Of a stretch of DNA of 64,000 bases, positions 1,851-38,905 are shown piece after piece. This DNA comes from Burkholderiales bacterium (GTDB lineage: Bacteria; Pseudomonadota; Gammaproteobacteria; Burkholderiales; CAIKXV01), in assembly GCA_038205245.1 (NCBI GenBank), contig JBBRCD010000001.1, positions 58,882 through 122,881 of the forward strand, read 5' to 3'. The notes beneath the pieces were generated by a model, which saw nothing but the letters and a program-made list of their open reading frames with translations, made no database searches and was not told the origin of the DNA. Every line of letters begins with the position of its first letter. Position 1 is the stretch's first letter. A program made the translations under genes and the position numbers.

Positions 1851-2407
1851 TTTCGGGTGAAGCTCAGCGTCACCTGGCCCAGGCGGATGCCCCACTTGCT
1901 CATCACCGCAGTGTTGAGCATCACCCGATCGTCGATCAGGTACATCCAGTCGTCGAACTGCACATGCCATGTTCTGCCGGACACCGGCAGCGCGAGGGTA
2001 TAGGCCCAGTAAAGCGCGTTGCCATGGGCCTTGCCCTGGGCCACGCCGACCACATCGTCGGCGGTGCCGGTGTAGGTGTTCGCATCGACCTTGGTGATCG
2101 TCCACACCCGGCGCTGCTTCTCGCCATCGGACCACTCGAAGCGTTCGTCCAGGGTGCCCACATTGCCGTTCCACTTCGCATCGATGGTCACCACGAACCG
2201 GCGCTCGACCTTGCCCGAACGGCTCTGGAACATGCCGTGACCGATCAGGGTGCCGTTGAAATAGCGCTGCAGGTCGAGCACCGGCTTTTCGGCGGAGTAG
2301 ACCTGCGGATCGACCGACGCGCATCCTGCCAGCATCAGTGCCAACAGTCCCGCGGCGAACATCGAGGAACCGCGCGAACGGCAAACGGCGAGCAGACGAG
2401 CGAACAT
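1847..2407 (-). CDS. DUF3833-like lipoprotein
   Basis: Signal peptide with lipobox 'LMLAGC' after an internal Met (ATG at 2407). The conserved C-terminal part 'WHVQFDDWMYLIDDRVMLN' was recognised from cfa-associated clusters. Confidence 0.65.
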   Translation of the reverse strand: MFARLLAVCRSRGSSMFAAGLLALMLAGCASVDPQVYSAEKPVLDLQRYFNGTLIGHGMFQSRSGKVERRFVVTIDAKWNGNVGTLDERFEWSDGEKQRRVWTITKVDANTYTGTADDVVGVAQGKAHGNALYWAYTLALPVSGRTWHVQFDDWMYLIDDRVMLNTAVMSKWGIRLGQVTLSFTRK

Positions 2408-2427
2408 GGAAGACCTCCAGGAAGTGT

Positions 2428-3729
2428 TCAGAACCGCTGGGCTCGCCAGGCCTGCCAGAGCAAGGCTGCCGCGACCAGCTTGAGTGCACAAGGAACAACC
2501 GCATAAGTGAACGCCAGCGCGGCCAGCGCCTCGGCGTCCTGCGACCCGCGCAGGTAGCCCAGACCTTCAAGCAGCGGCAGCGCGATGCCCCCGGCGATCG
2601 CCAGGGTGAGCTTGTTGACGAAATTCCAGAGTCCGAAGTAGGCCCCTTCGCGCTGCCCACCATGGCCGTTGGCATCGATCACCCGCGCGAGCAGGGCCGG
2701 CGGCAGCGCGAGATCGGCGCCGAAAGCAACGCCGGACAGCACGCAGATCGCGGCAAAGCCCCAGAGCGCGCCTGCATCCAGCCAGTAAGCCCAGACGAAG
2801 GCCGCGACAGAGGCCAGCATGCCGATCAGCCAGACCACATGCAGGCTGTAGCGGCCGGCGAGCCGCACCCATAGGGGCATGCTGGCTGCGCCGGCAATAA
2901 AGTAAAGCGCAAGGAATGCGCCAGTGTAGCCAGCCAGCCCGAGGCGGTCGGCCACGAAGAACTGGAACACGGTTGCGGTGATCGAGGGCGCGACCGCGTT
3001 CAGCGCGAACACCAGCAGCAGCCAGCGAAAGCGGGAACTGGCAAGAGGCACCACGAAGCTGGCGAACGGGTTGCCACCGGCCGCCTGTCGCGCCCGCAAT
3101 ACCGACGCCTCGGTCCTCTGCGGCTGAGGCGCATAGCGAGCAAGCACGATGACACCAAGCAGCAGCGCCACCAGGAACACGCCGATCAATGCCGGCATGC
3201 CCACCGCCTGCGGCAGCACTGCACCGATCAGCACGCCGACCAGTCCCGCGCCTTCGCGTGCGCCGGTAATGCGTGCGCGGCCGGCATCATCGCCAGCGAG
3301 CTCGGAACCCCAGGCCTGATAGGCAACGATGCCGAGCGAATAGCCCAGGTAGGCGCCGACCAGCGTCACCGCCAGCCAGAGTGCGCTGCCGGCATCGCCG
3401 AGCGCGTCCGGCGGCGACAGCAGCAGCACGAAGCTCAGTGCCAGAACTGGCGCGGCAATGAAGATCGGCAGCAGATAGGAACCGCCGACCTTCTGCGCGT
3501 CCACCCAGGCGCCAAGCAGTGGGTCAGCGACGGCATCGACCAATCGGGTGGAGAACAGGACGATACCGATCAACGAAAGCGACAGGCCGGTGCGTGCGTT
3601 GTAGAAGTCGGGCAGCAGGATGTTGATCGGCAGTGCCGTCATCAGCAGCGGCACACTGAACATGCAATAGGCAGCGAGCTGCGCACCGGTCAGCCGTGCG
3701 TTCCCGGCCGGCAAGGGCTGTCCGGTCAT
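2428..3729 (-). CDS. MFS-type transporter (GPH/folate-biopterin-like)
   Basis: 433 aa with about 12 hydrophobic segments. Conserved position inside the cfa-type cluster. Confidence 0.75.
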   Translation of the reverse strand: MTGQPLPAGNARLTGAQLAAYCMFSVPLLMTALPINILLPDFYNARTGLSLSLIGIVLFSTRLVDAVADPLLGAWVDAQKVGGSYLLPIFIAAPVLALSFVLLLSPPDALGDAGSALWLAVTLVGAYLGYSLGIVAYQAWGSELAGDDAGRARITGAREGAGLVGVLIGAVLPQAVGMPALIGVFLVALLLGVIVLARYAPQPQRTEASVLRARQAAGGNPFASFVVPLASSRFRWLLLVFALNAVAPSITATVFQFFVADRLGLAGYTGAFLALYFIAGAASMPLWVRLAGRYSLHVVWLIGMLASVAAFVWAYWLDAGALWGFAAICVLSGVAFGADLALPPALLARVIDANGHGGQREGAYFGLWNFVNKLTLAIAGGIALPLLEGLGYLRGSQDAEALAALAFTYAVVPCALKLVAAALLWQAWRAQRF

Positions 3730-3735
3730 CTCGAC

Positions 3736-4332
3736 TCAGGTCTTGCCGAGCAGGCGGGCGCGTAGCTGCGGCTCGCGGGTCTTCGGATCGAGCCAGATCG
3801 CGAAGAACGCGGTGGCGAACGCCGGGTCGTCGATGGTGCCGAGCGCGCGGTCCTGGCTGAAGAAAGCGGCGCCTCCGCCTTTCAGGTACACCCCGATCAG
3901 CCGGTCGCCGCGGCCGACATTGGGAAACACCCGGATCATCGCCGCCAGCCAGCGCGCATGCTGCGCCTCGTCGGTAAAGCCGACCCGTTTCATCTCGGTG
4001 ATGCTGCTCTCTGCCAGCGCCTTGCCCGCGAGATCGCGTCCGTAAAGGATGTCGAGCGCGTGTACGTCGTCGGGCTCCCACTGCGTGCCGCGCGCCCAGA
4101 GCGCGACGTCGTACACATGCAGGCCAAACCAGCGCATGGTGCCGAAACCGATCCGCTTGAGGTCGCCTGTGGCCGCGACCACGGCTGGAGGCAGACGGGC
4201 CAACTGGGGCGGCCCGGCAGCCTGCAGCGACCCGGCCACGGGCAACGTCAATACGGGTGCCAGGGCAGCGAGCGCCAGCAGGCTGCCCAGTCGAAAAGCG
4301 GTGCGCCGACGATCCAGGCGGGAAGTATTCAT
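3736..4332 (-). CDS. Chalcone-isomerase-like family protein, secreted
   Basis: N-terminal signal peptide. 'FGLHVYDVALW...FFAIWLDPKTREPQLRARLLG' resembles the CHI-like family found in these clusters. Its start overlaps the upstream cfa gene stop by 4 nt. Confidence 0.6.
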   Translation of the reverse strand: MNTSRLDRRRTAFRLGSLLALAALAPVLTLPVAGSLQAAGPPQLARLPPAVVAATGDLKRIGFGTMRWFGLHVYDVALWARGTQWEPDDVHALDILYGRDLAGKALAESSITEMKRVGFTDEAQHARWLAAMIRVFPNVGRGDRLIGVYLKGGGAAFFSQDRALGTIDDPAFATAFFAIWLDPKTREPQLRARLLGKT

Positions 4333-5603
4333 CCCGGCGAACCGTTCATCGGACGCAACAGTTCGAAATGCAGCACATCGGTGCGACCGGAATCAAAGCC
4401 CGCCTCACAGTAGGCAAGATAGAAGCGCCACAGGCGGATGAACCGGTCGTCGAAACCGAGTGCACGAACTCGGGGCTCGGACTCGGTGAAGGTCTTGAGC
4501 CAGCGGCGCAGCGTCTCGGCGTAGTCGCGCCCGAACGCCTCGGTCGCCTTCACCTCGAGCCCGGCGCGATCGCTCTGCCGGACAAACTCGCTCTCCGAGG
4601 CGAGCATGCCGCCTGGAAACACATGCTGCTGGATGAAGTCGGTGCCGCGGCGGTAGCGCCCGAACACCTCGTCATGGATGGTGATGCCCTGGATCACCGC
4701 GCGCCCCCCCGGCTTCAGCGCATCGCGGATGGCGCGGAAGTAGGCTGGCCAGAACCGCTCCCCGACCGCCTCGTACATCTCGATCGACACCACATGGTCG
4801 AATTGCCCCTGAATGTCACGGTAATCGGTGAGCGTGAGTTCGGTCTGGCTGGACAGACCCGCCCCGGCAAGGCGCGCCTGGGCGTACTCCAGTTGCGCCG
4901 GAGAAATGGTGATGCCGCGCACCCGGCAGCCGCGCCGGGCCGCCACCTCGGCGAATCCGCCCCAGCCACAGCCGATCTCCAGGATGTGATCGCCCGCCCG
5001 CGCCTCCAGGCGATCGAGAATGCGTTCGTACTTGATCCGCTGCGCATCGTCCAGTGACCTGGACGCATCGCCGCCGAAGTAGGCCGATGAGTAGCTCATC
5101 GTCGGATCGAGCCAGAGTCGGTAGAACTCGTTGCCCAGATCGTAGTGCGCGACGATGTTGCGCCGGCTGCCAGAGCGTGTGTTGGCCCGCGACCAGTGGC
5201 GCAAGCGGTACCAGAGCACTGCGAACCAGTTGCCGTAGAACGCGCGCTCGATATGCTGCTGGTTGAGCAACGCAAGGGTGAGCAGATCGCTTGGCCGGTC
5301 GATGTCGCAGTCGCCCGCCATGTAGGCCTCGGCCAGACCGATGTCTGCGGTGCGCATTATCTCCTCCGCTGCAGCCCAGGAGCGCAGGGTCAGCGTCGCC
5401 TGCGGACCGGAGTCCGCGCCGAAACTCAGGCACTCGCGTTCGGGCGTGACCAGGTCGATACGGCCGATCTGGATCCGATCGAGCACCCGGGTGAGCAGCT
5501 GCCCGGCCGGGGGCATGGCGCTGCGCACCCGACGGGCTGTCTCCACGTCGGTGACCGGCCGGATGTCGCCGCCGCTGGACTGTTCGATAGTGACATCGTT
5601 CAT
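4329..5603 (-). CDS. cfa: Cyclopropane-fatty-acyl-phospholipid synthase family SAM-dependent methyltransferase (UfaM/Cfa-like)
   Basis: 424 aa with the SAM-binding motif 'HILEIGCGWGGFAEVAA' and CFA-synthase-like N- and C-terminal regions. Confidence 0.9.
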   Translation of the reverse strand: MNDVTIEQSSGGDIRPVTDVETARRVRSAMPPAGQLLTRVLDRIQIGRIDLVTPERECLSFGADSGPQATLTLRSWAAAEEIMRTADIGLAEAYMAGDCDIDRPSDLLTLALLNQQHIERAFYGNWFAVLWYRLRHWSRANTRSGSRRNIVAHYDLGNEFYRLWLDPTMSYSSAYFGGDASRSLDDAQRIKYERILDRLEARAGDHILEIGCGWGGFAEVAARRGCRVRGITISPAQLEYAQARLAGAGLSSQTELTLTDYRDIQGQFDHVVSIEMYEAVGERFWPAYFRAIRDALKPGGRAVIQGITIHDEVFGRYRRGTDFIQQHVFPGGMLASESEFVRQSDRAGLEVKATEAFGRDYAETLRRWLKTFTESEPRVRALGFDDRFIRLWRFYLAYCEAGFDSGRTDVLHFELLRPMNGSPG

Positions 5604-24063: not shown

Positions 24064-25083
24064 TTACTCGAGCCTGGCTCCGCTCTCCTTCACCAGCTTC
24101 GCCCACTTGACCATGTCCGCGAGCATGTATTGGCGGAACGCCTCCGGCGTATTGCCCACCGGCTCGGAGCCGTCAGCGATGATCCGCTCGCGCACGTCCG
24201 GCTGGTTCAGGATCCGGATCAGTTCGCCGTTGAGCTTGGCTACCAGCGCCTTGGGCATCTTCGCCGGGCCGGCGATGCCGTACCAGCCGACCAGTTCGAA
24301 GCCAGGCAGCGCTTCGGAGACCGCCGGATAGTCCGGCAGCGCGGCGACGCGCTTCGGGTTGGACACCGCGATCGCTCGCAGCTTGCCGGCACGCACCAGA
24401 TTCTGCGCGGCCTGGATGCCGGCGAAGTTGTACTGGTACTGCCCGCCGAGCAGATCAGCCAGCGCCGGGCCGGAGCCCTTGTACGGAATATGCTGCGCCT
24501 TCACGCCAGCCATCAGGTTAAAAAGCTCGCCAGCCAGATGCCCGCCGCTGCCGATACCGGCAGAGCCGAAGTTGAGACCACCCTTGAAGCTGCGTGTCCA
24601 GTCGACGAACTCCTTCAGCGTTTTTGGCGGACTCGCCGGGTTGACCACCAGCAGCAATCCGGCCGCGGTGAGCTGGCTGATCGGCGTGAAGTCGTTCACC
24701 GGGTGATAGGGCAGCTTGCTGTTCAATGCTGCAGTGATCGTGTGCTGGTGATAGACCAGCAGCAGCGTGTAGCCATCCGGGGCCGCGCGTGCGGTCATCT
24801 CGCCGGCGTTGACCCCGGAGGCGCTCGCCCGGTTGTCGACCAGCACCTGCTGCTTCAACGACTCGGTCATTCGTGCCGCGAACAATCGTGCGAGGATGTC
24901 GGTGGTACCGCCCGGGGCAGCCGGCGTGATCAGCCTTATCGCGCGGTTCGGATAGTCGTCCTGCGCGAGCGCGGGGTTGGCCGCCACTGACCCGGTCAGC
25001 GCGGCCACCGCGAGCATCGACTTCAAGGCCACCCGCCACACCTGCCCGGCGGCCGGACGCGATTCATTCGGAATCGAAACCAT
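24064..25083 (-). CDS. Bug/TctC family substrate-binding protein
   Basis: 'YPNRAIRLITPAAPGGTTD' and C-terminal 'PEAFRQYMLADMVKWAKLVK'. GGAGGA lies 6-7 nt upstream of the ATG at 25083. Confidence 0.85.
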   Translation of the reverse strand: MVSIPNESRPAAGQVWRVALKSMLAVAALTGSVAANPALAQDDYPNRAIRLITPAAPGGTTDILARLFAARMTESLKQQVLVDNRASASGVNAGEMTARAAPDGYTLLLVYHQHTITAALNSKLPYHPVNDFTPISQLTAAGLLLVVNPASPPKTLKEFVDWTRSFKGGLNFGSAGIGSGGHLAGELFNLMAGVKAQHIPYKGSGPALADLLGGQYQYNFAGIQAAQNLVRAGKLRAIAVSNPKRVAALPDYPAVSEALPGFELVGWYGIAGPAKMPKALVAKLNGELIRILNQPDVRERIIADGSEPVGNTPEAFRQYMLADMVKWAKLVKESGARLE

Positions 25084-25199
25084 GCTGTCTCCTCCTTTTG
25101 GGTTGCCGGGGTGCTGTGCCGCACCTTTTCCGGATGGGCGGTCTGCGATGGCGACCCACCCTGTGGTGCCCGGCGCCGTCATGGACCGGCCTTCTCTGC

Positions 25200-25697
25200 C
25201 TACTTCAACTTCGACATGATCTGCTCGAGATAGCCCAGTATCAGCGCCGAAACGACGAACCCGAGATGAATGATGGTTGCCTATATCAGCTGGTTGTTAG
25301 TGTACTGCGGCAGGTTCAGAAAGATCTGCAGCAGGTGTATCGAAGAGATCGCCACGATAGAGGAGGCGACCTTGATCTTCAGGCTGCCGGCGTTGAGCTT
25401 GCCCGGAAAAGACACGTCCTCGCCGCCCGGGTCAAAACGGCTGACGAAGTTCTCGTAGCTGGAGACCATGACCATCACGAGCAGGCTGGCCACCAGCGCC
25501 GAATCGATCAGCGCCAGCATCGCCAGGATCATCTCATTGTCGCTCATGGTGAAGGCCAAGGCCGCGATCTTGCTGAACTCGTAGAGAAACGAGACCGCGT
25601 AAACCGCCAGTGCCGCCGCCAGCCCCAGCAGGAACACGACCAGTATCCAGCGACTGGCAAGGAGGATGCGCTCGACCATCAGTTCCAGCGATTTCAT
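25200..25697 (-). pseudogene. yqhA: YqhA/UPF0114 family membrane protein interrupted by one in-frame TAG
   Basis: 'ASRW...LLVMVMVSSYENFVS...VAISSIHLL' is YqhA-like. The ORF stops at TAG (25281-25283), but the same frame continues as 'ATIIHLGFVVSALILGYLEQIMSKLK' to the stop at 25200-25202, which is the conserved last helix. Confidence 0.7.
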
Positions 25698-25717
25698 GCG
25701 ATTCGGCCCCAATCAAC

Positions 25718-25773
25718 GCGTACCATCCGACGCGTACCATCTGGCGCATATCATCCGACGCATACCATCCGAC
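25718..25773. repeat. 14-bp tandem repeat x4 (GCGTACCATCCGAC-like)
   Basis: Read directly: gcgtaccatccgac / gcgtaccatctggc / gcatatcatccgac / gcataccatccgac. The array begins about 20 nt upstream of the yqhA start. Confidence 0.9.
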
Positions 25774-25793
25774 GCTTGACCCTGCGCGCCCGG

Positions 25794-25870
25794 CACCTGA
25801 GCCCTGCACCTGAGCCCTGCATCTGAGCCCCGCATCTGAGCCCCGCATCTGAGCCCCGCACCTCAGCCCG
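25794..25870. repeat. 13-bp tandem repeat x6 (CA[C/T]CTGAGCCC[T/C]G)
   Basis: Read directly: cacctgagccctg x2, catctgagccccg x3, cacctcagcccg x1. It lies in the divergent yqhA/ylqF intergenic region. Confidence 0.9.
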
Positions 25871-25994
25871 CATGATACTGAAAACCCCGACGCATCCCGC
25901 CAATGTCGGGTCGGTGGACAATAACCTCGGGCAGATCACCCTCTGCGTATTAAAACCTGCGCCGGCGCTGCCGGCTCACCGCGAAGCGAACACG

Positions 25995-26915
25995 ATGTCT
26001 ATCGGATGGTTCCCCGGCCATATGGCCAGCGCCCGCAAGAAGGCGGCGGAGACGCTGGCGAAGATCGACGTCGTGGTCGAGGTGATGGACGCGCGGCTGC
26101 CCGGTGCCAGCAGCAATCCGATGATCGAGGCGCTGCGTCGGCACCGGCAACGGCCGAGCCTGAAAGTACTGAACAAGGCCGACGCGGCCGATCCGGAGGC
26201 GACCGCCGCCTGGATGCGTCATCTGGTGGCGGCCACTGCCCGGGGCGACAAGGTGCAGGCGGTGGCGCTGTCCTGCCGCAAGGCGTCCGATGTGGCACGC
26301 GTCCCTCGTCTGGCCTTGGCGCTGGCGCCGCATCGCGACAGCGCTCTGAAGCCGTTGCGCCTTATGGTGATGGGCATTCCGAACGTCGGCAAGTCGACCC
26401 TGATCAACGCGCTGGCCAAGCGGCGGGTCGCCAATGTCGGCGACGAACCGGCGATCACCAAGAGCCAGCAGCGGATCGACATCAACGAGCAGCTGGTGCT
26501 GTTCGACACCCCGGGGCTGCTCTGGCCGCTGATCGAGCATCCGTCTGATGGCCTGATGCTGGCGGCGAGCCATGCCATCGGCATCAACGCCTACATCGAC
26601 GAAGAGGTGGCGAACTTCCTGGGCGAGACGCTGATCGCACGCTACCCGGCGCTGCTCGCGGCGCGCTACCGCTGCGATCCGGCCGGGCTCGACGGCCCGG
26701 ACCTGATCGATGCCATAGCACTGCGGCGGAGCTATGTATTGAAGGGCGGCGTTCCCGACCGGGAGAAGGCCGCGATCACCCTGCTCACCGACTATCGCAG
26801 TGGTGCGCTCGGGCGGATCAGCCTGGAGACGCCGGCGAGTCGTGCAGCGATGCTGGCCGCACCCGCGGATAAGCCCGCGGTGGTCGAGCCAGATCAGCCC
26901 GCCACCGGGGACTGA
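25995..26915 (+). CDS. ylqF: Ribosome biogenesis GTPase YlqF/RbgA (circularly permuted GTPase)
   Basis: 'WFPGHMASARKK' is present. 'VLNKADAAD' (G4) precedes 'GIPNVGKSTLINAL' (G1), showing the permuted motif order. ATG at 25995. Confidence 0.85.
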   Translation: MSIGWFPGHMASARKKAAETLAKIDVVVEVMDARLPGASSNPMIEALRRHRQRPSLKVLNKADAADPEATAAWMRHLVAATARGDKVQAVALSCRKASDVARVPRLALALAPHRDSALKPLRLMVMGIPNVGKSTLINALAKRRVANVGDEPAITKSQQRIDINEQLVLFDTPGLLWPLIEHPSDGLMLAASHAIGINAYIDEEVANFLGETLIARYPALLAARYRCDPAGLDGPDLIDAIALRRSYVLKGGVPDREKAAITLLTDYRSGALGRISLETPASRAAMLAAPADKPAVVEPDQPATGD

Positions 26916-27575
26916 TCCGCATCAACGGTCAATCAGCGGCGAACAACCGGCCGAGGTCGACCGGGAACGTACTGGTCGCGGACACACCATCGGTCCGGTG
27001 AATCTCGACAGTCGCCGTCTTCGGCTCCACGATCCACGCCTCATGTGCGCCGGCCCGAAGATAGCTCTGTGCCTTCTCGCGCAGTTCGCGCAACGAATCG
27101 TTCGGTGAGACTACCTCGATGCAGATCTCCGGAGCAGCGCGCAGAGCGACCTGCTCGGGATGCTGCTGCAGAAACACGTCGCTGCACCAGACGACGTCCG
27201 GCCCGCGCAGACCGATGTCGGTGATCATCCCGACCTCGACCATGCAGTGTCCGCCCAGTGCGTCCTCGACCAGTCGGACAAGTCTCGCCGCCGTCAGTCC
27301 ATGAGGCATAACTACCGGGGGATTCACCAGCACCTCTCCGAACTCGTTCAGCTCCACCCTGCCCGGATGGTCTCGATACGCCGGTACGTTCCATATCTCG
27401 CTCAGGCGGCGTTCCAGCCCGGCGGCATCGAGTGGCGCCGGTTTCTCACCACCGGAGACGGCGGACACACTGGGCGAACTATTCACGGTTGCACCTCATC
27501 GTTGCACCTCGATAGCCGGTCCAGGCGAACAGAATCACGCTAGAGTAAGGCAGATGCGCGTGCCAGAACAACCGG
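26671..27575. repeat. Left copy of long diverged direct repeat (ylqF 3' end + intact Uma2 + downstream)
   Basis: It aligns by eye with 32660-33065 at roughly 80-85% identity where both copies are present. The right copy lacks two internal blocks. Confidence 0.75.
26929..27486 (-). CDS. Uma2 (DUF820) family putative endonuclease
   Basis: 185 aa. '...PDVVWCSDVFLQQHPE...APEICIEVVSPNDSLRELREKAQSYLRAGAHEAWIVEP' matches the PD-(D/E)xK Uma2 pattern. Confidence 0.8.
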   Translation of the reverse strand: MNSSPSVSAVSGGEKPAPLDAAGLERRLSEIWNVPAYRDHPGRVELNEFGEVLVNPPVVMPHGLTAARLVRLVEDALGGHCMVEVGMITDIGLRGPDVVWCSDVFLQQHPEQVALRAAPEICIEVVSPNDSLRELREKAQSYLRAGAHEAWIVEPKTATVEIHRTDGVSATSTFPVDLGRLFAAD

Positions 27576-27618
27576 CGGGGTCAAGGGGTTGGTCGATCCG
27601 GTGTGACGCTGACAGAGG

Positions 27619-28086
27619 TCAAGCTGCCAAAGGTAGGCTCAGCAAACCCTTGACCGGCCGTTCAACCGCGTTGCTGTGAGGATACTTACGTACTAAATCT
27701 AACATTCCTCCAGGGCCGTGGTAGACAGCCTCATCGATCGACCATTCACCGTGCTCACCACGGCGCGAAGCAGCGAAGGCTATGGCGCATTTACCACGGT
27801 CTCCATTGATGACCATGACAAACCGAGCTGTGCTGTACGGCTTTGACATTCTGAAACCGAACCTTCCGATCCCTAGCCTCGTTGACCGTACATTCCCAAT
27901 GGCCAATGTTATTGCCGCATGATCCATTGCGTATCGTTCGGCGCTCTCATATGCGCCACTCTTTGCGATCACGAGATACGCGGTAAATGTTAATGCCAGT
28001 AAAAGCGCTAGAGCAATAGAGCCATGCCACCATAGTGGGTAACCGGCAACTTCTTTAGTGAAGAGTGACTTCGATTCCGAGGCCAT
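27619..28086 (-). CDS. Candidate Rhs immunity protein, single-pass membrane protein
   Basis: The ATG at 28086 lies inside the last 10 codons of the Rhs gene (32-nt overlap) with GGGGA upstream. TM helix 'WWHGSIALALLLALTFTAYLVIA' is followed by a ~110-aa domain. This is the most AT-rich stretch of the window. No family recognised. Confidence 0.5.
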   Translation of the reverse strand: MASESKSLFTKEVAGYPLWWHGSIALALLLALTFTAYLVIAKSGAYESAERYAMDHAAITLAIGNVRSTRLGIGRFGFRMSKPYSTARFVMVINGDRGKCAIAFAASRRGEHGEWSIDEAVYHGPGGMLDLVRKYPHSNAVERPVKGLLSLPLAA

Positions 28087-31000
28087 AAGCGAATCCCCAT
28101 TTCCCATAGCCACCACTGGACGGCCCGAACGGGATCTGCCCGTCAGCGCCGGCATAGCCCGTCATTGGAATCGCGCGAGGACCAGCAGAACCGACTGTAG
28201 TCGTGAATCCTCCCGAGAGCTGACCGCCAAGTCCGACACCAAGCGCGCCGATGCCGGCTTGACCAAATACGCCCGAGCTTGATTGTCCGGTAGGAAGACA
28301 TTGGGCGTCGCCGGCACCAGGACGCACACCGAGTGGGTCCCATGTAGCCTGAACGCCAAGACCTTTACCGAATCGAATCGAGACACCCGTCACGCGTCCG
28401 TTTCCGGTTAACGGATTGCCTGTTGCATGGACGATAACTCCGAAACCGAGACCGAAGTATCCTTCGATACCAATCGACCAGAGTCCGAACGGGTCGACGC
28501 GCATGAACGGATTTGATTGGGCGTACTTGTAGGTATTGATGCCCCCCGCCAACCCAATCGGATCGGCCTGGATGTACCGTCCCGTGAACCGATCGTAATC
28601 CCGAAAGTAGTTGTAGAACAACTCGGTCTCGACATCGGCGTACTGGCCGGGCATGCGCAGGTTGAAGGTGAAACTGCCCAGCCCCGAGGGGCTGGTGCTC
28701 GGCTGATTCCCGCCGAACGGCTCGTTGAGGTCCCAGCGCCAGCGCGCCTGGTTCATCACATTGACCATCAGCCGCGGGGTGCCGATCTGGTCCGGGTAGA
28801 TGTAGTAGATCTCGCTCGCACCTGCCGCCCCGCGCAGACTGGCCACCGGCAGGTCACCCAGCCAGACGATCTCCTGGATTGCGCTGCCGGCCAAATCGTA
28901 CTCCCCCAGCAGCCGGCCGGCCTCGTCGTAGATGAAGTAGGTGGCCGGATTGGCCGGCCCGCCCACCCGCTTGCTCACCCGCTCGCCGCGTGCGTTGTAG
29001 CCCGAGAAGACCACCTTCGAGGTGGGCGAGCCCGGCGTCACGGTCACCACCGCCAGTCGCCCGCGCGCGTCGTAGTCGTAGGCGCTGATGCCGTCGCTCA
29101 CCGCCCGCCCGGAGGCATCGTACCCGTACAGGCGCAAGGTCGAGGTCCCGCTCGCACTGTTCACTCGCTGCAGCCGATTGCTCGTAGCCTCGTACACGTA
29201 AGGTTCATTGGAGCGCGAGAGCCGGTTGCCATTCAGATCGTAGGTGTAGCTGCGGGTCGCGCCGGCAATGAAGCTCGTCAGTCGGTCGTTCGCGTCATAC
29301 CCCACCGGGATCGTCTGGCCGGGTAGCGACAGCGCAACGATGCGCGACGCCGCATCGTACGTCAGTGCCCGGGTCTGCGCACCCAGCGTGTAGCCGGTGA
29401 TGCGTCCATCCAGATCGCGCGGCCGTGCCGCCCGCGGCGTACCGCTGGCCGCCGAGAGGTCCCACCCGGTCACCTCGCCGAAGGGGTGATAGCTCACCTG
29501 GCCGATCAGCGGTGCGGTCCCGAGCGTCATCGAGGCGACGCGTCCGTTCGCATCCAGCGCAAACCCGATCTGGCGCCCGGACGGGTAGGTCAACCGATCG
29601 AGTCGACCATACGCATCGTATCGGTACTGGACGGTCAGCGCGATCGGGCCTGTGACCTGCGTCTTTGCGATGACGCGCCCACGGGCGTCGTACTGGAAGG
29701 CGGTGCCGCCACCAGGATCGGTGAAGGCGGTGAGCCGCCCGGCGCCGTACTGGCCCTGATCCCAGCTGAAGTCCTGCGTGATCGTCGCCTGTCCGCTCTG
29801 AGCATGCACCGAGCGCGTCACCCGGCCCAGCGCATCGCGGGTGTAGGTGGTCACACGTCCGGCTGCGTCGGTCTCGGTGGCGACACTGCCGGCGCTATCG
29901 AACGTGCGCGTGGTCGTGCCTCGGTCGCGCGAGACCTCCTGCGTCTCGTTGCCCAGCGCGTCGACCGTGTAGGCGGTCGGAATCGACCTGGGGTCGGTGA
30001 CCTGCGCCGTCTGGTCCAGCGCGTTGTACAGCACGCTCACCTGACCACCGTCCGGGGCGGTGGTTCGGGTGAGGCGGTTGAGCGCATCGTGGAGCCGGCT
30101 GGTCACATCGGCCAGGCCGGCCAGCGGGCCGTCGACCGTCGTGAGGTTGCCCTGGTTGTCGTAGCCGAATGCGCTCGTCTGCCCGGCCGCCCCGATCTCC
30201 TGCGCGAGGCGGTTGAGCGCGCTGTAGACGCGCGTGCGCGACTGGCGCAGGGCGCCGCCCGCATCGCGCACCTGCTCGGCGGTGCGGTTGCCCATTGCGT
30301 CCAGCGTGTAGTCAATCCGGTTGCCCACACCGTCTTCGATACCGATCAGCCGTTGCGCACCATCGTAGCCGTAGTCGATACGGCTGCCGTCGGGCTGCGT
30401 CACCCGTGTCAGCAGCCCCGCGGCGTCGTACGCGTAGGCGAGGGTCTCGCCGGCTATGGTCATCGAGGTCAGGCGCTGCCGGGCGTCAAAGGCGAGCGTG
30501 GTCGACACACCGTTCTCGTCGGTGATCGTGCGTGCGTTGCCGTGGGCATCGTGGTTACTGTAGGTGGTAGTCAGCGACGACGAGCCATTCACCTGGCGTG
30601 ATACCGACAGCAGATTGCCGTTGACCGGGTCGAAGGTCGTCGTAATGACGTCCTGCACATCGTTACGTGGGCCGTCTTCAACACTCTGCTCGATCAGTCC
30701 GGGGACTGCGCTTGAATAGGTGTGCGTCCAGGTCCATGTGCGCGTCCAGCCGCTGGCGACATCCTTCACCGCGCGCGACACCAGGTTGCCGCGTGTGTCG
30801 TAGGCCATCGAGGTTTCGCGCAGCGCCGTGCCGGTGTTGTTCTGCTCGGTCAGCTTGGTCGGCAGTCGGAAGCTCGTGTGCCACTCGGTCTGGATCGTGC
30901 GGCTCTCCGGGCGCACGGTGCCATTACCGTCCAGGCCTTCGGTGCGGCTCGTCTCCAGATTCCGCGCCAAGTCGTACCCGTACGTCGTCCTGAAACCGTT

Positions 31001-32540
31001 CCAGTCCGTCGTGCCAGACACGTTACCGTTGACGTCAAAGCTGCGCGCTGCGGGACCGCAAGCGGGACAAGGCGCAGAGTGGATCGAAGTGTTATACAGC
31101 GCATTGGCGATCGTGGTGAAACTGTAGGTACGCACCACCCCCAGTGGATCAGTCACCGTGCGATTAGCGGTATTCGGGAAGCTGACTTGGTACCGATTGA
31201 CCGATCCAGAGAGCTCGGTCGAAACAGCCCTGCCCGTGGCATCGTATCGATAGGTCGCAAAGCGAACGCCCCGCTCGTCGGTGATTCCGGTCAGGGCATT
31301 GGGGAGGTTGGCTCCCGCAGTATTGGCGGACTCGTTGTAGTGGTAGGTACGGAACGTCGCATCCGGATAAGTCACGCGGGACAGTCGCCCAGAAGAATCG
31401 TACGCATATTCGGTGATTTGGCCGGCCGGATCGGTCATTCGCGCAATGCCTCGGGCATCCCGGGCGTGGGTGAACGACAATGTGCGTCCCAATGAATCGG
31501 TCGCCGCAATCAACAACCCAGGGAAAGGCGCAACGGACGTCGGCGTGGACGTTGTGCTGTAGCTCAGGACAATCGAGGCGCCGCTACGCGAAGAGATGGA
31601 CAGGAGTTTTCCTGCAGCGTCGTAGCGTTCGACGTCCTCACTTGAGGCCACCGTGTACCGCCAACCAGAGAACACACCGCCTGTATCGACCACCCCGTTC
31701 CAGGGCATCGGATATGTCAGAATCGGGCAGGAACGTGCCTCCGACCAGCGTGAACACCAGCATCTTTCCATCTTCGCGATACGCGAAAGCCTTGCCCGAC
31801 GGGGGCGCCTCAGCGATCGACCGTGAGAAAGTATGCCGCCACTGGGGACCGATGTCCGAAGCCATTGGCGACTCGGTCGAGTTGTAGCGCCTCTCGAACC
31901 ACATGGCAAACTGCCCTTGCCCGCGATAGTCCGTTTGCCGAAGGAACTTGTTGCCGTTGCTACAATCGATTGGACAGCCTACGTGGCGACTTGCTCTTGC
32001 GTCGGGCTCTCCAAGCGTTTTCGGATTCCGATCCGGGGAAGGATCGGACGCGACGCGGCAGAACAGTCTCTCCTCATTCCCTGCCACGTACCACTGTGGC
32101 ATGCCGACTGAGACTTGGCGGTAACCAATCGAATCCATCGTGTAGGTGCACGACAAACCTTTAAGCAACTGTCCACTGAAGCCAGCGTGGCCGGGCTGAC
32201 CCGCAGGAGTACCGTTGTCTGCCCAACACGTTCCAATGACGGTGAATCGAATTATGGACGGGGCCGACCCGTAGCCTTCTGAGCTGCTAAACCAATTGAA
32301 CCATCGGTAGCCAGTGTTGGTTGTCAAGCGGGTACCCCAGATATTGACCGCTTCGCCGGGCGTTCGCCATTCAGGGCCTGAACCAACGAGTCCTCCAACG
32401 CAGCCATAGATCGTTACGGGCGGAACGTCGTATGCAGACCGGGCAATCGACGGCCACACGCCCGAAGCGACTAGCACGAACAACAGGAGGGCTCGCCATA
32501 CCTGGGGAACAATGGAGGGACTAACGATCGCTTGACGCAA
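28055..32540 (-). pseudogene. rhs: Rhs/YD-repeat toxin, split into two ORFs by a 1-nt frameshift in a G-run (about 31693-31697)
   Basis: The N-terminal ORF (32540-31638) carries 'CSNGNKFLRQTDY...RRYNS...GPQWRHTFS'. The second ORF (31909-28055) carries many YD repeats ('YGYDGAQRL', 'YRYDAYGRL', 'YDYDARGRL') and the core-ending 'DPIGLAGGINTYKYAQSNPFMRVDPFGL'. TTG start with GAGGA upstream. The break may be a sequencing error rather than a true pseudogene. Confidence 0.8.
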
Positions 32541-32659
32541 AGAGGTCCTCGTGGAAAACGCGCTGTCTCGTTACTACCCGCTGAGGATGGGCGAACTTTA
32601 TTGCGCCCTCTCGACTGGACTGATGGCGGCTTGATGAACTCTGCTACCTACCTGACCAT

Positions 32660-32910
32660 TGCGGTGATCCGGCCGGGCTCTACGCCCCGGCCCTGATTGA
32701 TGCCATAGCGCTGCGGCGGCGCTATTCATTGAAGGGTGACGTTCCAGACCGGGAAAAGGCGGCGATCACCGTGCCCACCGACTATCGCAATGACGCGCTC
32801 GGGGGATCAGTCTGGAGACGCCGGCGAGTCGGGCAGCGATGCTGGCGGCACCCGCGGTTCAATCCGTGGCGATCGAACCGGATGAGCCCGCCACTGCGGG
32901 CTGATCCGCA
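32660..32910 (+). pseudogene. Displaced 3' fragment of ylqF (frameshifted)
   Basis: It encodes 'DPAGLYAPALIDAIALRRRYSLKGDVPDREKAAITVPTDYRNDALGG', then loses frame through a 1-nt deletion relative to 26671-26915. Confidence 0.7.
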
Positions 32911-32914
32911 CGTG

Positions 32915-33000
32915 GGACCGCCTCGATGCAGAACTCCAGAGCAGCGCGCAGGGCGCCTTGCTCGGGATGCTGCTGCAGAAATCTGTCGCTACACGTCGAT
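32915..33000 (-). pseudogene. Uma2 endonuclease remnant (internal and C-terminal deletions)
   Basis: The minus strand encodes 'DRFLQQHPEQGALRAALEFCIEAV', compared with the intact 'DVFLQQHPEQVALRAAPEICIEVV'. Confidence 0.6.
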
Positions 33001-33319
33001 AGCCGGTCCAGGTGAACAGGATGGAGCCAGATCACGGCGCATGCGCGCACAGGAACCAGCGCGAGACGGCAATACCTGCTGCCCTGGTGTAAGTCGCTGA
33101 GCGCGTCGTTGGGCGGACTCTTCTGGGAGTTGAAGCGCACAAACACTTGGATACAACTGCGCATGATCCGGAAATCACCCGCTTACATCTGTGCGCTCCA
33201 ATAGGGACGTCGCGGATGCGGCATGTCCAATCCCGTGTGGATCGGACAGTCGGCAATGCTTCCCGGGCTCCCCAGCCAGACGCCCAGGTAGTCCCCCACC
33301 CATCAAACGGAGAACAACC

Positions 33320-33736
33320 ATGAGATCAGCCGTACTGTCGATGCTGGCCAGCGCAAGCCTGGGCCTGGCGCTTTCCTCCAACCCGGTGATCGCGCAGCCA
33401 ATGACGGCTGCCGATTCCGAAGTACCGACCTCAACCAGCGCGCCCCAGCCGCGACGCGGCGATGCGGGCCTGCGCTCGCGAGGTCACGGTGCGGCCTCGG
33501 GTGACCGAGAGGCCAGACGCAAGGTCATGGAACAGCTGACCACACCTGAAGAGCGCAGCGCGATGCGCGAGAAGATGCAGAACGCCTCACCGGAACAACG
33601 CAAGGAACTCGCGAACGGATTTCGCGCCGGCATGCAGGCCCGAGCCAAGGAACGTGGCATCGCGCTGCCCGCAGGCGATCAGCATCGGCACCAGCATCGG
33701 CAACACCGGGGCAACCCGGCTGCGCCGCCTGCCTGA
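33320..33736 (+). CDS. Small secreted charged protein, hypothetical
   Basis: Signal peptide 'MRSAVLSMLASASLGLALSSNPVIAQP' with GGAGA upstream. It has a helical Lys/Arg/Glu-rich body and a His-rich tail 'HRHQHRQHR'. Confidence 0.5.
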   Translation: MRSAVLSMLASASLGLALSSNPVIAQPMTAADSEVPTSTSAPQPRRGDAGLRSRGHGAASGDREARRKVMEQLTTPEERSAMREKMQNASPEQRKELANGFRAGMQARAKERGIALPAGDQHRHQHRQHRGNPAAPPA

Positions 33737-33767
33737 GTGCAACGCGCCGCAGCTTCTCAAAGAACTG

Positions 33768-36700
33768 TCAGGCCGCCTTCACCAGATTCGGCTCGTAGCC
33801 CAGATTGGGTGCGAGCCAGCGCTCGGCCAGTTCCAGCGGCATGCCCTTGCGTTTCGCGTAGTCCTCGACCTGATCCCGGTTGACCTTGCCGACTGCGAAG
33901 TACTGCGCATCCGGATGCGACAGGTAGAAGCCGCATACCGATGAGGCCGGCATCATCGCGTGGCTCTCGGTCAGGGTGATCCCCACATCGGGCGCACTGA
34001 GCATGGAGAACAATGCCGGCTTCTCGGTGTGATCCGGACACGCCGGGTAACCCGGCGCGGGGCGGATGCCGCGGTACTGCTCGGCGATCAGCTGCGCGCT
34101 GTCCAGCGCCTCGGCGCGCGCATAGCCCCAGAAGTCCGTGCGCACACGTTTGTGCAGCATCTCGGTGAATGCTTCGGCCATCCGGTCGGCCATCGCCTTG
34201 AGCATGATTGCGCTGTAGTCGTCGCCCTTGCTCTCGAACGCCTCCAGCCGCTTCTCCATGTTCAGGCCGGCGGTGACGGCAAAGGCGCCGATGTAGTCGG
34301 CAATGCCGGTGTCCCTGGGCGCGATGAAGTCCGACAGGCACTGATTCGCCCGGCCCTCGGGTTTCTGGTTCTGTTGGCGCAGGTTGTGCCAGGTCATCAG
34401 CACCTTGTCCCGCTTCTCGTTCTCGTAGATCTCGATGTCGTCGCCGACCGAGTTCGCTGGATACAGCGCGAACACCGCATTGGCGGTCAGCCAGCGGCCC
34501 TCGATCAGCTTCTTCAGCATCGCCTGTCCATCGCCGAACACGTTGCGTGCAGCTTCGCCGACCAGCGCATCCTCCAGGATCTTCGGGTACGGGCCGGCAA
34601 GGTCCCAGGTCTGGAAGAACGGGCTCCAGTCGATGTACTGGGCGATCTCGGCCAGATCGTAGTTCTTCAACTGGCGGATTCCGGTGAACGCCGGTTTTGG
34701 CGGCACATAGGCTGGCCAGTCGAAGCGCTGCAGGTTCGTACGCGCGCGCGCCAGCGGGATCAGATCCGGGCCGCGCTTGCTTGCGTGCTGCTCGCGCACC
34801 TTGTCGTAGTCCCGCGCCAGCTCGTCCAGGTACTTTCGGCGCACCGTCTCGTCTTCGGAGAGCAGGTTGGTGCACACCGACACGCTGCGCGACGCGTCAG
34901 GCACCCAGACCGTCGGACCGCGGGTGTAACCGGGCGAAATCTTCACCGCGGTATGGGTGCGCGACGTGGTCGCGCCGCCGATCAGCAGGGGCATGGTGAA
35001 GCCCTGGCGCTCCATCTCGCGCGCGACATGCGACATCTCTTCCAGCGACGGGGTGATCAGCCCGGACAGCCCGATGATGTCCGCTTTCTCTTCGCGTGCC
35101 TTGTCGAGAATCTGCTGGGCGGGAACCATCACGCCCATGTTCACCACTTCGTAGTTGTTGCACTGGAGCACCACCGACACGATGTTCTTGCCGATGTCGT
35201 GCACATCGCCTTTCACGGTGGCGATGACGATCTTGCCCTTGGCCTTGACCTCGCCTGACAGCGCTTTCTCCGCCTCGATGAACGGCACCAGGTGGGACAC
35301 CGCCTGCTTCATCACCCGCGCCGACTTGACCACCTGCGGCAGGAACATCTTGCCCGCCCCGAACAGGTCGCCAACGACGTTCATGCCGTTCATCAGCGGA
35401 CCTTCGATGACCTCGATCGGACGCCCGCCGCGCGCCTCGATCTGCGCGCGTGCCTCTTCAGTGTCCTCGACGATCCATTGGGTGATGCCATGCACCATGG
35501 CGTGCGACAGACGCGCACCGACGTCCTGCTCGCGCCACTCCAGGCTCTGCTCCTGCTTCGCACCGCCGGCCTTGAGCGTGCCGGCGATTTCGATCATCCG
35601 CTCGGTGGAATCCGGCCGCCGGTTGAGCACGACATCTTCGACCCGCTCGCGCAACTCGGGTGCAAGATCGTCATAGACGCCGACCATGCCGGCGTTGACG
35701 ATACCCATGGTCATGCCGGCGCGGATCGCGTGATACAGGAACACCGTGTGGATCGCCTCGCGCGCCGGGTCGTTGCCCCGGAAGCTGAAGCTCACGTTGG
35801 ACACCCCGCCGCTCACCTTGGCATAGGGCAGATGGTCGCGGATCCACCGCGTCGCGTTGATGAAGTCGACGCCGTAGTTGTTGTGCTCCTCGATGCCGGT
35901 GGCGATGGCGAAGACGTTCGGGTCGAACACGATGTCTTCCGGCGGAAAACCGACTTGGTCGACCAGCAGCCGATACGCGCGCGCGCAGATCTCGATCTTG
36001 CGTTCGTAGGTGTCGGCCTGACCCTTTTCGTCGAACGCCATCACGATCACCGCCGCACCATAGCGACGACACAGCCCGGCCTGGCGCACGAACTCGGCCT
36101 CGCCCTCCTTCATGCTGATCGAGTTGACGATCGCCTTGCCCTGCACGCACTTCAGACCGGCCTCGATCACGTCCCACTTGGACGAATCGATCATGATCGG
36201 CACCCGCGAGATGTCCGGCTCGGAGGCGACCAGATTCAGGAAGCGGACCATGGCCGCCTTCGAATCGAGCATCGCCTCGTCCATGTTGATGTCGATCACC
36301 TGGGCGCCGTTCTCGACCTGCTGGCGGGCGACGGCCAGCGCATCGTCGAACTGCTCGTTCAGGATCATCCGCGCGAACGCTTTCGATCCAGTGACGTTGG
36401 TGCGCTCGCCGACGTTGACGAACAGCGAATCGCCATCGACGTTGAACGCCTCCAGGCCGGAGAGCCGCAGCTTGTGATCCGGGGCAGGAATCGCGCGCGG
36501 GGGCAGGCCGCGAATCTCGTCCGCGATCGCGCGAATATGGTCCGGCGTGGTACCGCAGCAGCCACCGGCAATGTTGACGAAGCCGCTCTGGGCGAACTCC
36601 TTCACCAGCGACGAGGTGATCTCTGGCGTCTCGTCGAACCCGGTGTCGCTCATCGGATTGGGCAGGCCGGCGTTCGGATAGATGCAGATGCTGGTGTCGC

Positions 36701-37499
36701 ACAGCTTCGAAAGCTCCGCGACATAGGGGCGCATCAGGGTGGCACCGAGCGCACAGTTCAGGCCGATGGTGATCGGCTGCGCATGGCGCACCGAGTTCCA
36801 GAACGCCTCGACCGTCTGCCCGGACAGGATGCGCCCCGAGGCATCGGTCACCGTGCCCGAGATCATCACCGGCAGACGCACGCCGCTTTCCTCGAAGAAG
36901 GCGTCGATGGCGAACAGTGCAGCCTTGGCATTCAGCGTATCGAATATGGTCTCGACCAGGAACAGATCGACTCCGCCCTCGACCAGCGCCCGCGCCTGCT
37001 CGAGGTAGGCCGATACCAGTTCGTCGAAGGTCACGTTGCGCGCACCCGGATCATTCACGTCTGGCGAGATCGACGCGGTCTTGGGGGTGGGCCCGAATGC
37101 GCCGGCGGCAAAACGCGGCTGTTCCGGCGTCGAATACTTCGCGCAGGCGGCCCTGGCCAGACGCGCCGCCTCGACGTTCATCTCGTAGGCGAGATCCTCC
37201 ATGTGATAGTCGGCCTGGGCGACCCGGGTCGCCCCGAAGGTGTTGGTCTCGATCAGGTCGGCGCCGGCAGCCAGGTACTGCTCATGGATTTCCTGGATGA
37301 CCTGCGGCTGGGTCAGCACCAGCAACTCGTTGTTGCCCTTCACGTCATGGCCGAACCCGGCGAACCGGGCGCCGCGATACTCGGCCTCGCCCAGCCGGTA
37401 GCGCTGGATCATCGTGCCCATCGCGCCATCGAGGATCAGGATACGGTGGGCGAGCTGGTCGCGAAGCGTGGCGAAAATTGGGGCATCGATGACTGGCAT
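33768..37499 (-). CDS. metH: Cobalamin-dependent methionine synthase
   Basis: 1243 aa from the ATG at 37499, with Hcy-binding, pterin-binding, B12 ('[11 protein letters not shown]', DxHxxG) and AdoMet-activation domains. The longer track ORF is an artefactual 5' extension. Confidence 0.95.
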
Positions 37500-37597
37500 G
37501 GCGCGAAATCCGGTCGGAGCAGGGACAGCCGATGATCCTAGCATGCAGGCCACTGCGAAGAGGTTGCATTTGTCCTGCCGGGCCACTGCGGTAAAAG

Positions 37598-38905
37598 TCA
37601 CGCCCGGGGGTCGGCGCCATCGGCCCCGGCCAGGCCATCGGCGGCGCTCCGGCCTCGCGCCAGGAGCCGCATGTAGTTCAGCCAGCAGACCGCGCCCAGC
37701 GTCAGGAACACTGCCGCGGCGATCGCCAGCGACAACTGGGTGGAGGACACCAAGGGCGAGATCACCCCGGCCAACACTGCATTCATCATCGACTGGGTGA
37801 AGCCCTGTACCGAGGCGACCAGCCCGCGGTTGCGCGGGAACAGATCCAGGGCCAGCAGGGTGATGCTCGGCATCGACAGGGCCATGCCGATCGAGTAGAC
37901 CATCAGGGGCAGCACCGTCCACGGCAGGCCGGGCGGAAACAGCCAGTGGTAGACGATGCTCGCCATCGCTGCGAGCGCCATGATCGCGAATCCGATACCC
38001 ACGGTGCGCTCGGGCGTGGTGCGCCCGGCCATGCGCCCGGAGAGCCAGGCTCCGATCACCACCCCACCGATTCCGGGCACGAACAGCCACGCAAACTGCG
38101 ACTCGGAGAGTCCGAGGTGCTGATAGACGACGATCGGCGCCGAGACGATGTAGATGAAGAAGCCGGCGAAGTTGAACGACACCGCCAACGCCAGCATGGC
38201 GAAGCGCGAACTGCCGCAGACCTTGAGGTAGTTGGCGAACAGCGGCGCCGGATGAAACGGCTGACGGTCGGCCGGCGACAAGGTTTCCGGCAGCCGCCAG
38301 GCGCAGCCTGCCCAGAGCAGCATCCCGAACACGGCCAGAAAGACGAAGATCGATTTCCAGCCGAACGCCAGATGCAGCATGCCGCCGATCACCGGCGCGA
38401 TCGCCGGGGCGAGGCTGAACAGCATCGTCACCTGCGACATCAGCCGCTGCGCTGGCGCCCCTTCATAGGTGTCACGGATGATCGCGCGACCGACCACCAT
38501 GCCGGCGCCGGCGGACATGCCCTGCAGCGCGCGACAGGCGAGCAGGGTCTCGATGCTCGGTGCGAACACGCAACCGATCGATGCGATGACGAACACCACG
38601 AGGTTGACCAGGATCACCGGCCGCCGACCGAAGGAGTCCGACAGGGCCCCATGGAACAGGGTCATCAACGCGAAACTCGCCAGATAGACCGAAAGCGTCT
38701 GCTGGACGTACAACGCATCTACTGCATAGTCGCGCGCGATCGCCGGAAACGACGGCAGGTAGGTGTCGATCGAGAACGGCCCGATGGTCGCCAGACCGGC
38801 GAGCAGCCAGGCGAGCAGTGGCGTATGGGTGCGTGCGTTCGAGTTGTGCCGGGTCGACGCAATAGTCACTTCATGTGTGCCAGGAGATGACGACCTGGCA
38901 GGCAA
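37598..38905 (-). CDS. Bcr/CflA family MFS drug-efflux transporter
   Basis: '[16 protein letters not shown]...DSFGRRPV' motif and 12 TM segments. Confidence 0.85.

Follow-up and report, generated by a model that had tools for sequence, protein, structure and literature searches.

Homology-facilitated illegitimate recombination (HFIR), reportedly described by de Vries and Wackernagel in 2002 and by Prudhomme et al. in 2002, captures non-homologous DNA through one homologous anchor and one illegitimate join, and can retain resident sequence downstream. Islands and prophages that insert by an integrase and rebuild the 3′ end of the gene they target (e.g. e14 in icd of Escherichia coli K-12) show an intact gene end beside the cargo, a displaced remnant beyond it, and an empty site. 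For displaced rhs tips, which are shunted downstream rather than replaced, a single-crossover route with a circular intermediate has been proposed (Jackson et al. 2009, PMC2935791), and HFIR has been invoked for effector–immunity arrays of type VI secretion systems (T6SS; Kirchberger et al., PMC5361080). Here we analyse an Rhs toxin gene and its candidate immunity gene, which lie between two copies of a segment spanning the 3′ end of ylqF and a Uma2-family gene, in a 64,000-nucleotide (nt) stretch of a Burkholderiales genome (assembly GCA_038205245.1, contig JBBRCD010000001.1, positions 58,882 to 122,881; hereafter "the window"). We put at roughly 0.6 the probability that an old, recombinase-free insertion-duplication left this interval as its scar, having arisen either through a single crossover with a circle or through a one-ended homologous event completed by an illegitimate join. 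The scar is a known type of recombination-driven gene gain; it is neither a working mobile island nor a new kind of mobile element.

The locus resembles rhs C-terminal displacement (PMC2935791) in that one homologous crossover would have added DNA and pushed the old homologous segment downstream as a silent relic, in that no site-specific recombinase is involved, in that an Rhs toxin–immunity module is the cargo, and in that high identity between donor and recipient would be needed. It differs in that the homologous arm is the end of a housekeeping gene plus Uma2 rather than the rhs core, in that the whole Rhs gene is cargo, and in that what was displaced is a ylqF/Uma2 pseudogene, not an orphan toxin tip. 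Recipient DNA is usually lost or replaced in HFIR, whereas here 904 nt are duplicated; under HFIR, the illegitimate join must therefore lie to the left of the donor's homologous stretch. In contrast to e14-type islands, no integrase is present at the locus, the repeat takes in a second gene and is much longer than an attachment-site (att) core, and the gene end that replaced the old one is not foreign.

The duplicated segment and its empty site

The features that carry the argument are the following.

25872-26915, plus strand: ylqF, an intact ribosome-assembly GTPase gene of the YlqF/RbgA type (Pfam MMR_HSR1, 2.8e-17), whose last ~245 nt belong to repeat copy 1
26929-27486, minus strand: intact gene of the Uma2 family (PD-(D/E)xK-like; Pfam PF05685, 7.6e-21)
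26671-27574, plus strand: copy 1 of the duplicated unit, functional, comprising the ylqF 3′ end, the intact Uma2 gene and 88 nt of its upstream DNA
27575-32660, minus strand: cargo of 5086 nt (Rhs toxin gene and candidate immunity gene), with no counterpart in empty-site contigs
32661-32910, plus strand: ylqF 3′ end, copy 2, now a relic pseudogene that carries 36 substitutions and lacks 1 nt
32912-33061, minus strand: copy 2 of Uma2, reduced to an 83-nt internal fragment and fused to copy 2 of the Uma2 upstream region
33062-33736, plus strand: ancestral right flank, comprising a conserved upstream block and a small open reading frame (ORF) with a signal peptide (33320-33736)

Comparison of the window with itself using a repeat finder resolves the two copies into four collinear matches. 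Specifically, 26671-26813 pairs with 32661-32803 (86% identity); 26812-26921 pairs with 32801-32910 (85%); 27105-27187, inside Uma2, pairs with 32912-32994 (86%); and 27499-27574, upstream of Uma2, pairs with 32986-33061 (74%). The register slip of 1 base between the first two matches corresponds to a 1-nt deletion in copy 2 opposite 26814, which breaks the ylqF frame. Copy 2 has also lost 183 nt corresponding to the 3′ part of Uma2 (26922-27104) and 311 nt corresponding to its 5′ part with the start (27188-27498), the latter deletion being flanked by two imperfect 9-mers, TCGCTGCAC and TCGTTGCAC. The initial annotation had described both a recurrence of the ylqF 3′ end with a frame-breaking deletion and a recurrence of Uma2 and upstream pieces with the intervening DNA removed, and both descriptions are confirmed. 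The self-comparison that it proposed sets the ends of the duplicated unit at 26671-27574 (904 nt) and those of its recurrence at 32661-33061. The right edge of copy 1 is placed at 27574, after ...CCAGAACAA, where the alignment to empty-site contigs ends, while the left edge is uncertain by ~15 nt. The 4.79-Mb assembly contains only these two copies and no third; the E-values for the three pieces of copy 2 (3e-76, 3e-20, and 4e-6) exclude a chance origin of the repeat.

Three independent metagenome contigs of a sister lineage show the empty site: L023 (2311 nt), L024 (1083 nt), and, retrieved by means of a 22-mer, L042 (2589 nt). All three align with the window up to 27574 and then directly with 32986 onward, with no cargo and no second copy; L042 extends into metH at 95% identity. 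The gene order at the empty site is ylqF, Uma2, Uma2 upstream region, small ORF, metH, and since the sister-lineage contigs share this arrangement, the ancestor had it as well. In ten other species of the genus, UPF0114 and ylqF are present and, as far as the contigs extend, the small ORF and/or metH come next; metH lies 0.1-1.0 kb from ylqF, and neither Uma2 nor Rhs occurs at the locus. Relatives were thus found to have empty sites, as had been suggested, and the layout of intact gene end, cargo, and displaced decayed gene end is upheld by these sites together with the repeat coordinates.

Relative to the ancestor, the window has gained 27575-32985, which is equivalent to a gain of the 5086-nt cargo (27575-32660) together with a second copy of the 904-nt unit. 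The unit is present twice in the window, as direct copies around the cargo, and once in each of L023, L024, and L042. Each copy still adjoins one of the ancestral flanks: the original junction with the 5′ part of ylqF is preserved at copy 1, and that with the right flank at copy 2, whose Uma2 upstream region runs unbroken into the flank exactly as in the three contigs. The new junctions are those of segment with cargo and of cargo with segment. A double-crossover allelic replacement was considered and rejected, as it would leave no second copy.

An assembly artefact, in which two strains or two loci would have been fused within the contig's repetitive Rhs core and the copies would never have lain on one molecule, is extremely doubtful. 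The assembly is indeed a 303-contig draft, Rhs cores are repetitive, and the Rhs gene contains a frameshift. However, the outer flanks (UPF0114–ylqF at the left, small ORF–metH at the right) are conserved synteny partners of one locus, so that any strain contributing either half must carry the cassette here; moreover, the assembly holds no near-identical Rhs paralogue, and a decayed relic cannot be invented by an assembler.

No tRNA was found in the window, and searches of the 124-kb contig with the profiles PF00589 (Phage_integrase), PF00239 (Resolvase), PF00665 (rve), and PF01609 (DDE_Tnp_1) gave no match, all matches of the genome to these families being on other contigs. The reported lack of integrase, transposase, and tRNA is thereby borne out. 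No terminal inverted or direct repeats above chance are present at the cargo ends, and the cargo consists of two genes only. G+C content is 55-59% at 27500-28500 and 58-60% at 31000-32750, versus 63-68% in the flanks, and reaches 66-70%, equal to or above the flanks, in the Rhs core (28750-30250). The claim that the cargo is more AT-rich than its surroundings accordingly holds for its two ends (55-60% G+C) but not for the Rhs core.

These data bear on the possibility, raised by the initial annotation, of an island that rebuilt its target gene; specifically, a now degenerate site-specific island would have entered the ylqF 3′ end, brought a replacement gene end, and later lost its integrase. 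The layout around the cargo, the existence of empty sites, the low G+C content of the cargo ends, and the variability of the site downstream of ylqF in the genus, where species G013 has a type I secretion pair, would all fit. We nevertheless consider it very improbable. Neither the 5.1-kb cargo nor the 124-kb contig encodes a recombinase, there is no tRNA, and the only terminal repeat is not att-sized: it is 904 nt long and includes the whole of Uma2 and its upstream region, which are already resident in the empty-site lineage. In addition, the gene end that the island would have carried is not foreign.

Decay of the second copy

The direction of change was polarised in two ways. When orthologues from ten species of the genus serve as outgroups over a conserved stretch of 190 nt, copy 2 has the derived state at 18 differences and copy 1 at 1, with 5 ambiguous. 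The changes derived in copy 2 are spread 5:7:6 over codon positions 1:2:3, many of them at sites invariant in all ten species, while genuine orthologue pairs show about 7:6:25; in a multinomial comparison the even (neutral) pattern is favoured ~60-fold for copy 2. With the sister-lineage contigs as outgroups, copy 2 and copy 1 carry 31 and 5 derived changes, respectively, in the ylqF end (244 columns), 8 and 3 in the Uma2 fragment (85 columns), and 8 and 8 in the non-coding upstream region (72 columns). Copy 2 has thus changed at ~0.09-0.13 per site in all segments, and copy 1 reaches that rate only where it is unconstrained, in the non-coding upstream region. The mutation spectrum of copy 2 comprises 24 GC>AT and 15 AT>GC changes.

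A maximum-likelihood tree places copy 1, copy 2, and L023 in one clade with support of 100/98, with terminal branches of 0 for copy 1 and 0.15 for copy 2. Both copies also have the ylqF tail specific to this lineage, which is different in every other species. The phylogeny of the two gene ends, proposed earlier as a means of detecting discordance, therefore shows none.

The location of most changes in copy 2, their even spread over codon positions, and the shared clade argue that the 14-15% difference between the copies is decay after duplication and not divergence between donor and recipient. From these comparisons, the derived changes, the codon spread, and the zero branch of copy 1 indicate that the copies were near-identical when they formed, and that copy 2 is a redundant relic under neutral decay rather than a foreign allele. 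The initial annotation had also entertained an allelic segment imported from a relative; this is contradicted by the lineage-specific tail and the 100/98 clade common to both ylqF ends, and by the asymmetry of derived changes (~1-5 in copy 1 versus 18-31 in copy 2). The neutral branch of copy 2 is of the same order as the total non-coding divergence between the window and the sister lineage (~0.19); the duplication is old.

One of the outgroup contigs, L023, is a mosaic. It has 2 mismatches to the window in ~930 nt of ylqF (25872-26803, 99.8% identity), ~90% identity from 26804, and 83% in the right flank, and appears to contain either a recent recombination tract that ends inside the repeat or a chimeric join. 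Its ylqF carries a frame-breaking deletion of 23 nt (26520-26542), and in the tandem arrays upstream of ylqF (25717-25865) it has one 14-nt unit and two 13-nt units fewer than the window.

Routes to the present arrangement

The insertion-duplication would have started from the ancestral order of ylqF, Uma2, Uma2 upstream region, small ORF, and metH. The incoming DNA would have carried the 904-nt ylqF-3′/Uma2 segment adjoining the Rhs–immunity cassette, and would have come from a donor of the same lineage, since the copies hardly differed when the event took place. Entry could have been as a circle, through a single Campbell-type homologous crossover at the resident segment, or as a linear molecule with its homology anchor at the left and an illegitimate join inside ylqF at the right (HFIR). 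Either route would yield the order segment, cassette, segment. The left copy, which completes ylqF and holds the only intact Uma2, would have stayed under selection, while the right copy, being redundant, would have decayed neutrally through substitutions, a bias from GC to AT, one 1-nt deletion, and two larger deletions.

Recombination between the repeats can reverse an insertion-duplication. The copies now share no identical run longer than 23 nt, a length at or below the usual minimal processing segment of E. coli RecA; RecA-mediated excision would hence be very unlikely, and the cassette effectively fixed.

The same end product could also arise if the 904-nt segment was first duplicated in tandem and the cassette arrived later at the junction, or if a template switch in replication or break repair, of the type seen in microhomology-mediated break-induced replication (MMBIR), copied the cassette from another place and resumed 904 nt behind the break. 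Near-identity of the copies at birth is what an in-genome duplication would produce, and the failure to find mobility genes agrees with such an origin. On the other hand, no donor or paralogue of the cassette, and no second copy of the cargo, was found in the genome itself, which counts mildly against both versions; two events at exactly one point are less parsimonious than one; and decay would have blurred any microhomology at the junctions. We regard these alternatives as rather unlikely.

Several observations weigh against the insertion-duplication itself. No circular or donor form has been observed. No close relative of the cassette was found anywhere searched, so that this reading does not account for its original placement beside the Uma2 segment. 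The cargo/copy 2 junction (32645-32660) is blurred by decay, which would hide any microhomology. The polarisation counts are small, at 72-244 columns per segment; the mosaic L023 is a weaker outgroup for 26671-26803, where the genus outgroups nevertheless agree; and the assembly is a draft of 303 contigs. The repeat, the empty sites, the direction and pattern of decay, and the lack of recombinase genes and terminal repeats are observed here, whereas we infer the functions of the cargo, the donor of the same lineage, and an intermediate that was circular or one-ended.

The search for relatives of the cassette covered several sets. In 400 genomes of the order, matches were confined to the DUF6531 portion of the Rhs N-terminus; the best Rhs relatives share 61-65% amino-acid identity over the core, with differing tips and contexts; and a metagenome scan for the cargo/copy 2 junction gave no match. 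A possible link between Uma2 and Rhs, suggested by a Uma2 gene that neighbours the Rhs relative in L040/L041, was rejected as coincidence, that gene being only 26% identical and on the opposite strand. Flank duplications were also sought at two further Rhs-related places, contig C72 of this genome and C289 of G010, which added no information. Elsewhere in the assembly, the sole other Rhs-like DNA is a fragment of ~45 codons of Rhs core next to a truncated DDE (IS4-like) transposase gene (L043, G000:C72, 10074-11689), an association that recalls the Rhs/H-rpt pairing in E. coli.

The cassette, its surroundings and its significance

The genes of the cassette and the gene beyond the right flank are as follows.

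27619-28086, minus strand: candidate immunity ORF (full ORF 27619-28155), 155 residues from the third Met, with one hydrophobic segment
28055-32540, minus strand: Rhs gene in two overlapping frames, one (31638-32540) N-terminal with DUF6531, the other (28055-31909) with RHS repeats and a Gly-rich tip
33768-38090, minus strand: metH

The Rhs gene has the hallmarks of a polymorphic toxin, namely RHS/YD repeats (Pfam RHS_repeat, 4.5e-77; DUF6531, 7.7e-13), a core that terminates in ...NPFMRVDPFGL, a motif of the PxxxxDPxGL type, and a variable, Gly-rich tip of 141 residues, which has no Pfam match and is encoded in a region of 55-58% G+C. It is not in one intact frame, being split by one frameshift of a single base, which lies near 31693-31696 in a short G/C run and may be real decay, a phase-variable run, or a sequencing error. 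The protein has a Sec-like leader and no PAAR domain, and there is no T6SS gene in the window; a T6SS sheath protein, VipB/TssC (6.9e-127), is encoded elsewhere in the genome (G000:C48:22425-23324). The small ORF that overlaps the end of the Rhs gene has no Pfam match and a single relative, at 65% identity; it would encode a candidate immunity protein that is anchored in the membrane.

Along the minus strand, the relic of the Uma2 upstream region comes first, followed by the rest of the relic, the Rhs gene, the immunity ORF, the intact upstream region, and finally Uma2. The old Uma2 promoter region may thus have come to lie upstream of the Rhs gene, and may perhaps be driving it. A scan of 26600-33400 for consensus promoters and terminators gave no matches, and an Rfam search over 25000-34500 gave nothing meaningful.

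The intact ylqF is 81-86% identical to its orthologues in 10 species of the genus, and no exact match to its product is on record. The closest relatives of the Uma2 protein, P0001 and P0002 (88-93% identity), are found on metagenome contigs only; no close homologue is present in 14 genomes of the genus, and a scan of species-representative genomes gave only matches of 34-38%, in unrelated phyla. Between the window and L023, L024, and L042, ~27 mismatches are clustered in 67 nt of Uma2 (27253-27319), compared with ~7% divergence elsewhere in the gene. The cluster alters a run of residues (VVMPHGLTAARLVRLVEDA versus VGVPHSRTAVRLARLLEDE), and could reflect local positive selection or a small conversion tract derived from a paralogue.

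Indels recur in the genus at the site downstream of ylqF. In G013 (L020, G013:C132:72000-79000, 2029-5135), a type I secretion ABC transporter gene and an HlyD-family gene lie between ylqF and the small ORF, an insertion at the same spot that identifies the site as variable. In G001, the gap between ylqF and metH is 126 nt, too short for the small ORF. The YlqF C-terminal tail has a different length and sequence in each species.

Across the genus, the non-coding DNA ~100-130 nt upstream of the small signal-peptide ORF contains a conserved block, with the pattern …GAAATCA..GCTTACAT….GTGCTCCAAT.GG…, which is found at 33140-33215 and at the orthologous positions in L003-L010 and L042. The block gave neither an Rfam match nor a supported consensus fold (-5 kcal/mol), and is probably a promoter or a regulator site.

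The insertion-duplication reading provides a clean, datable example of a toxin–immunity cassette added to a chromosome by host recombination alone. The evidence is unusually complete, in that the ancestral site is known in its empty state, the homology arm is seen in duplicate, the direction of change can be read, and the spare copy shows neutral decay. A bolder extension, which we hold to be quite improbable, is that whole Rhs–immunity genes circulate in the population as integrase-free circles with a ylqF-3′/Uma2 arm, entering and leaving by RecA alone, possibly aided by breaks made by the Uma2 nuclease, and that the decayed Uma2 promoter region drives Rhs; if it were true, the relic would mark a general, self-propagating way to move toxin genes. 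The logic of rhs displacement is here extended from the rhs core to a neighbouring housekeeping gene, and the decay of one repeat turns a reversible insertion into a fixed one.

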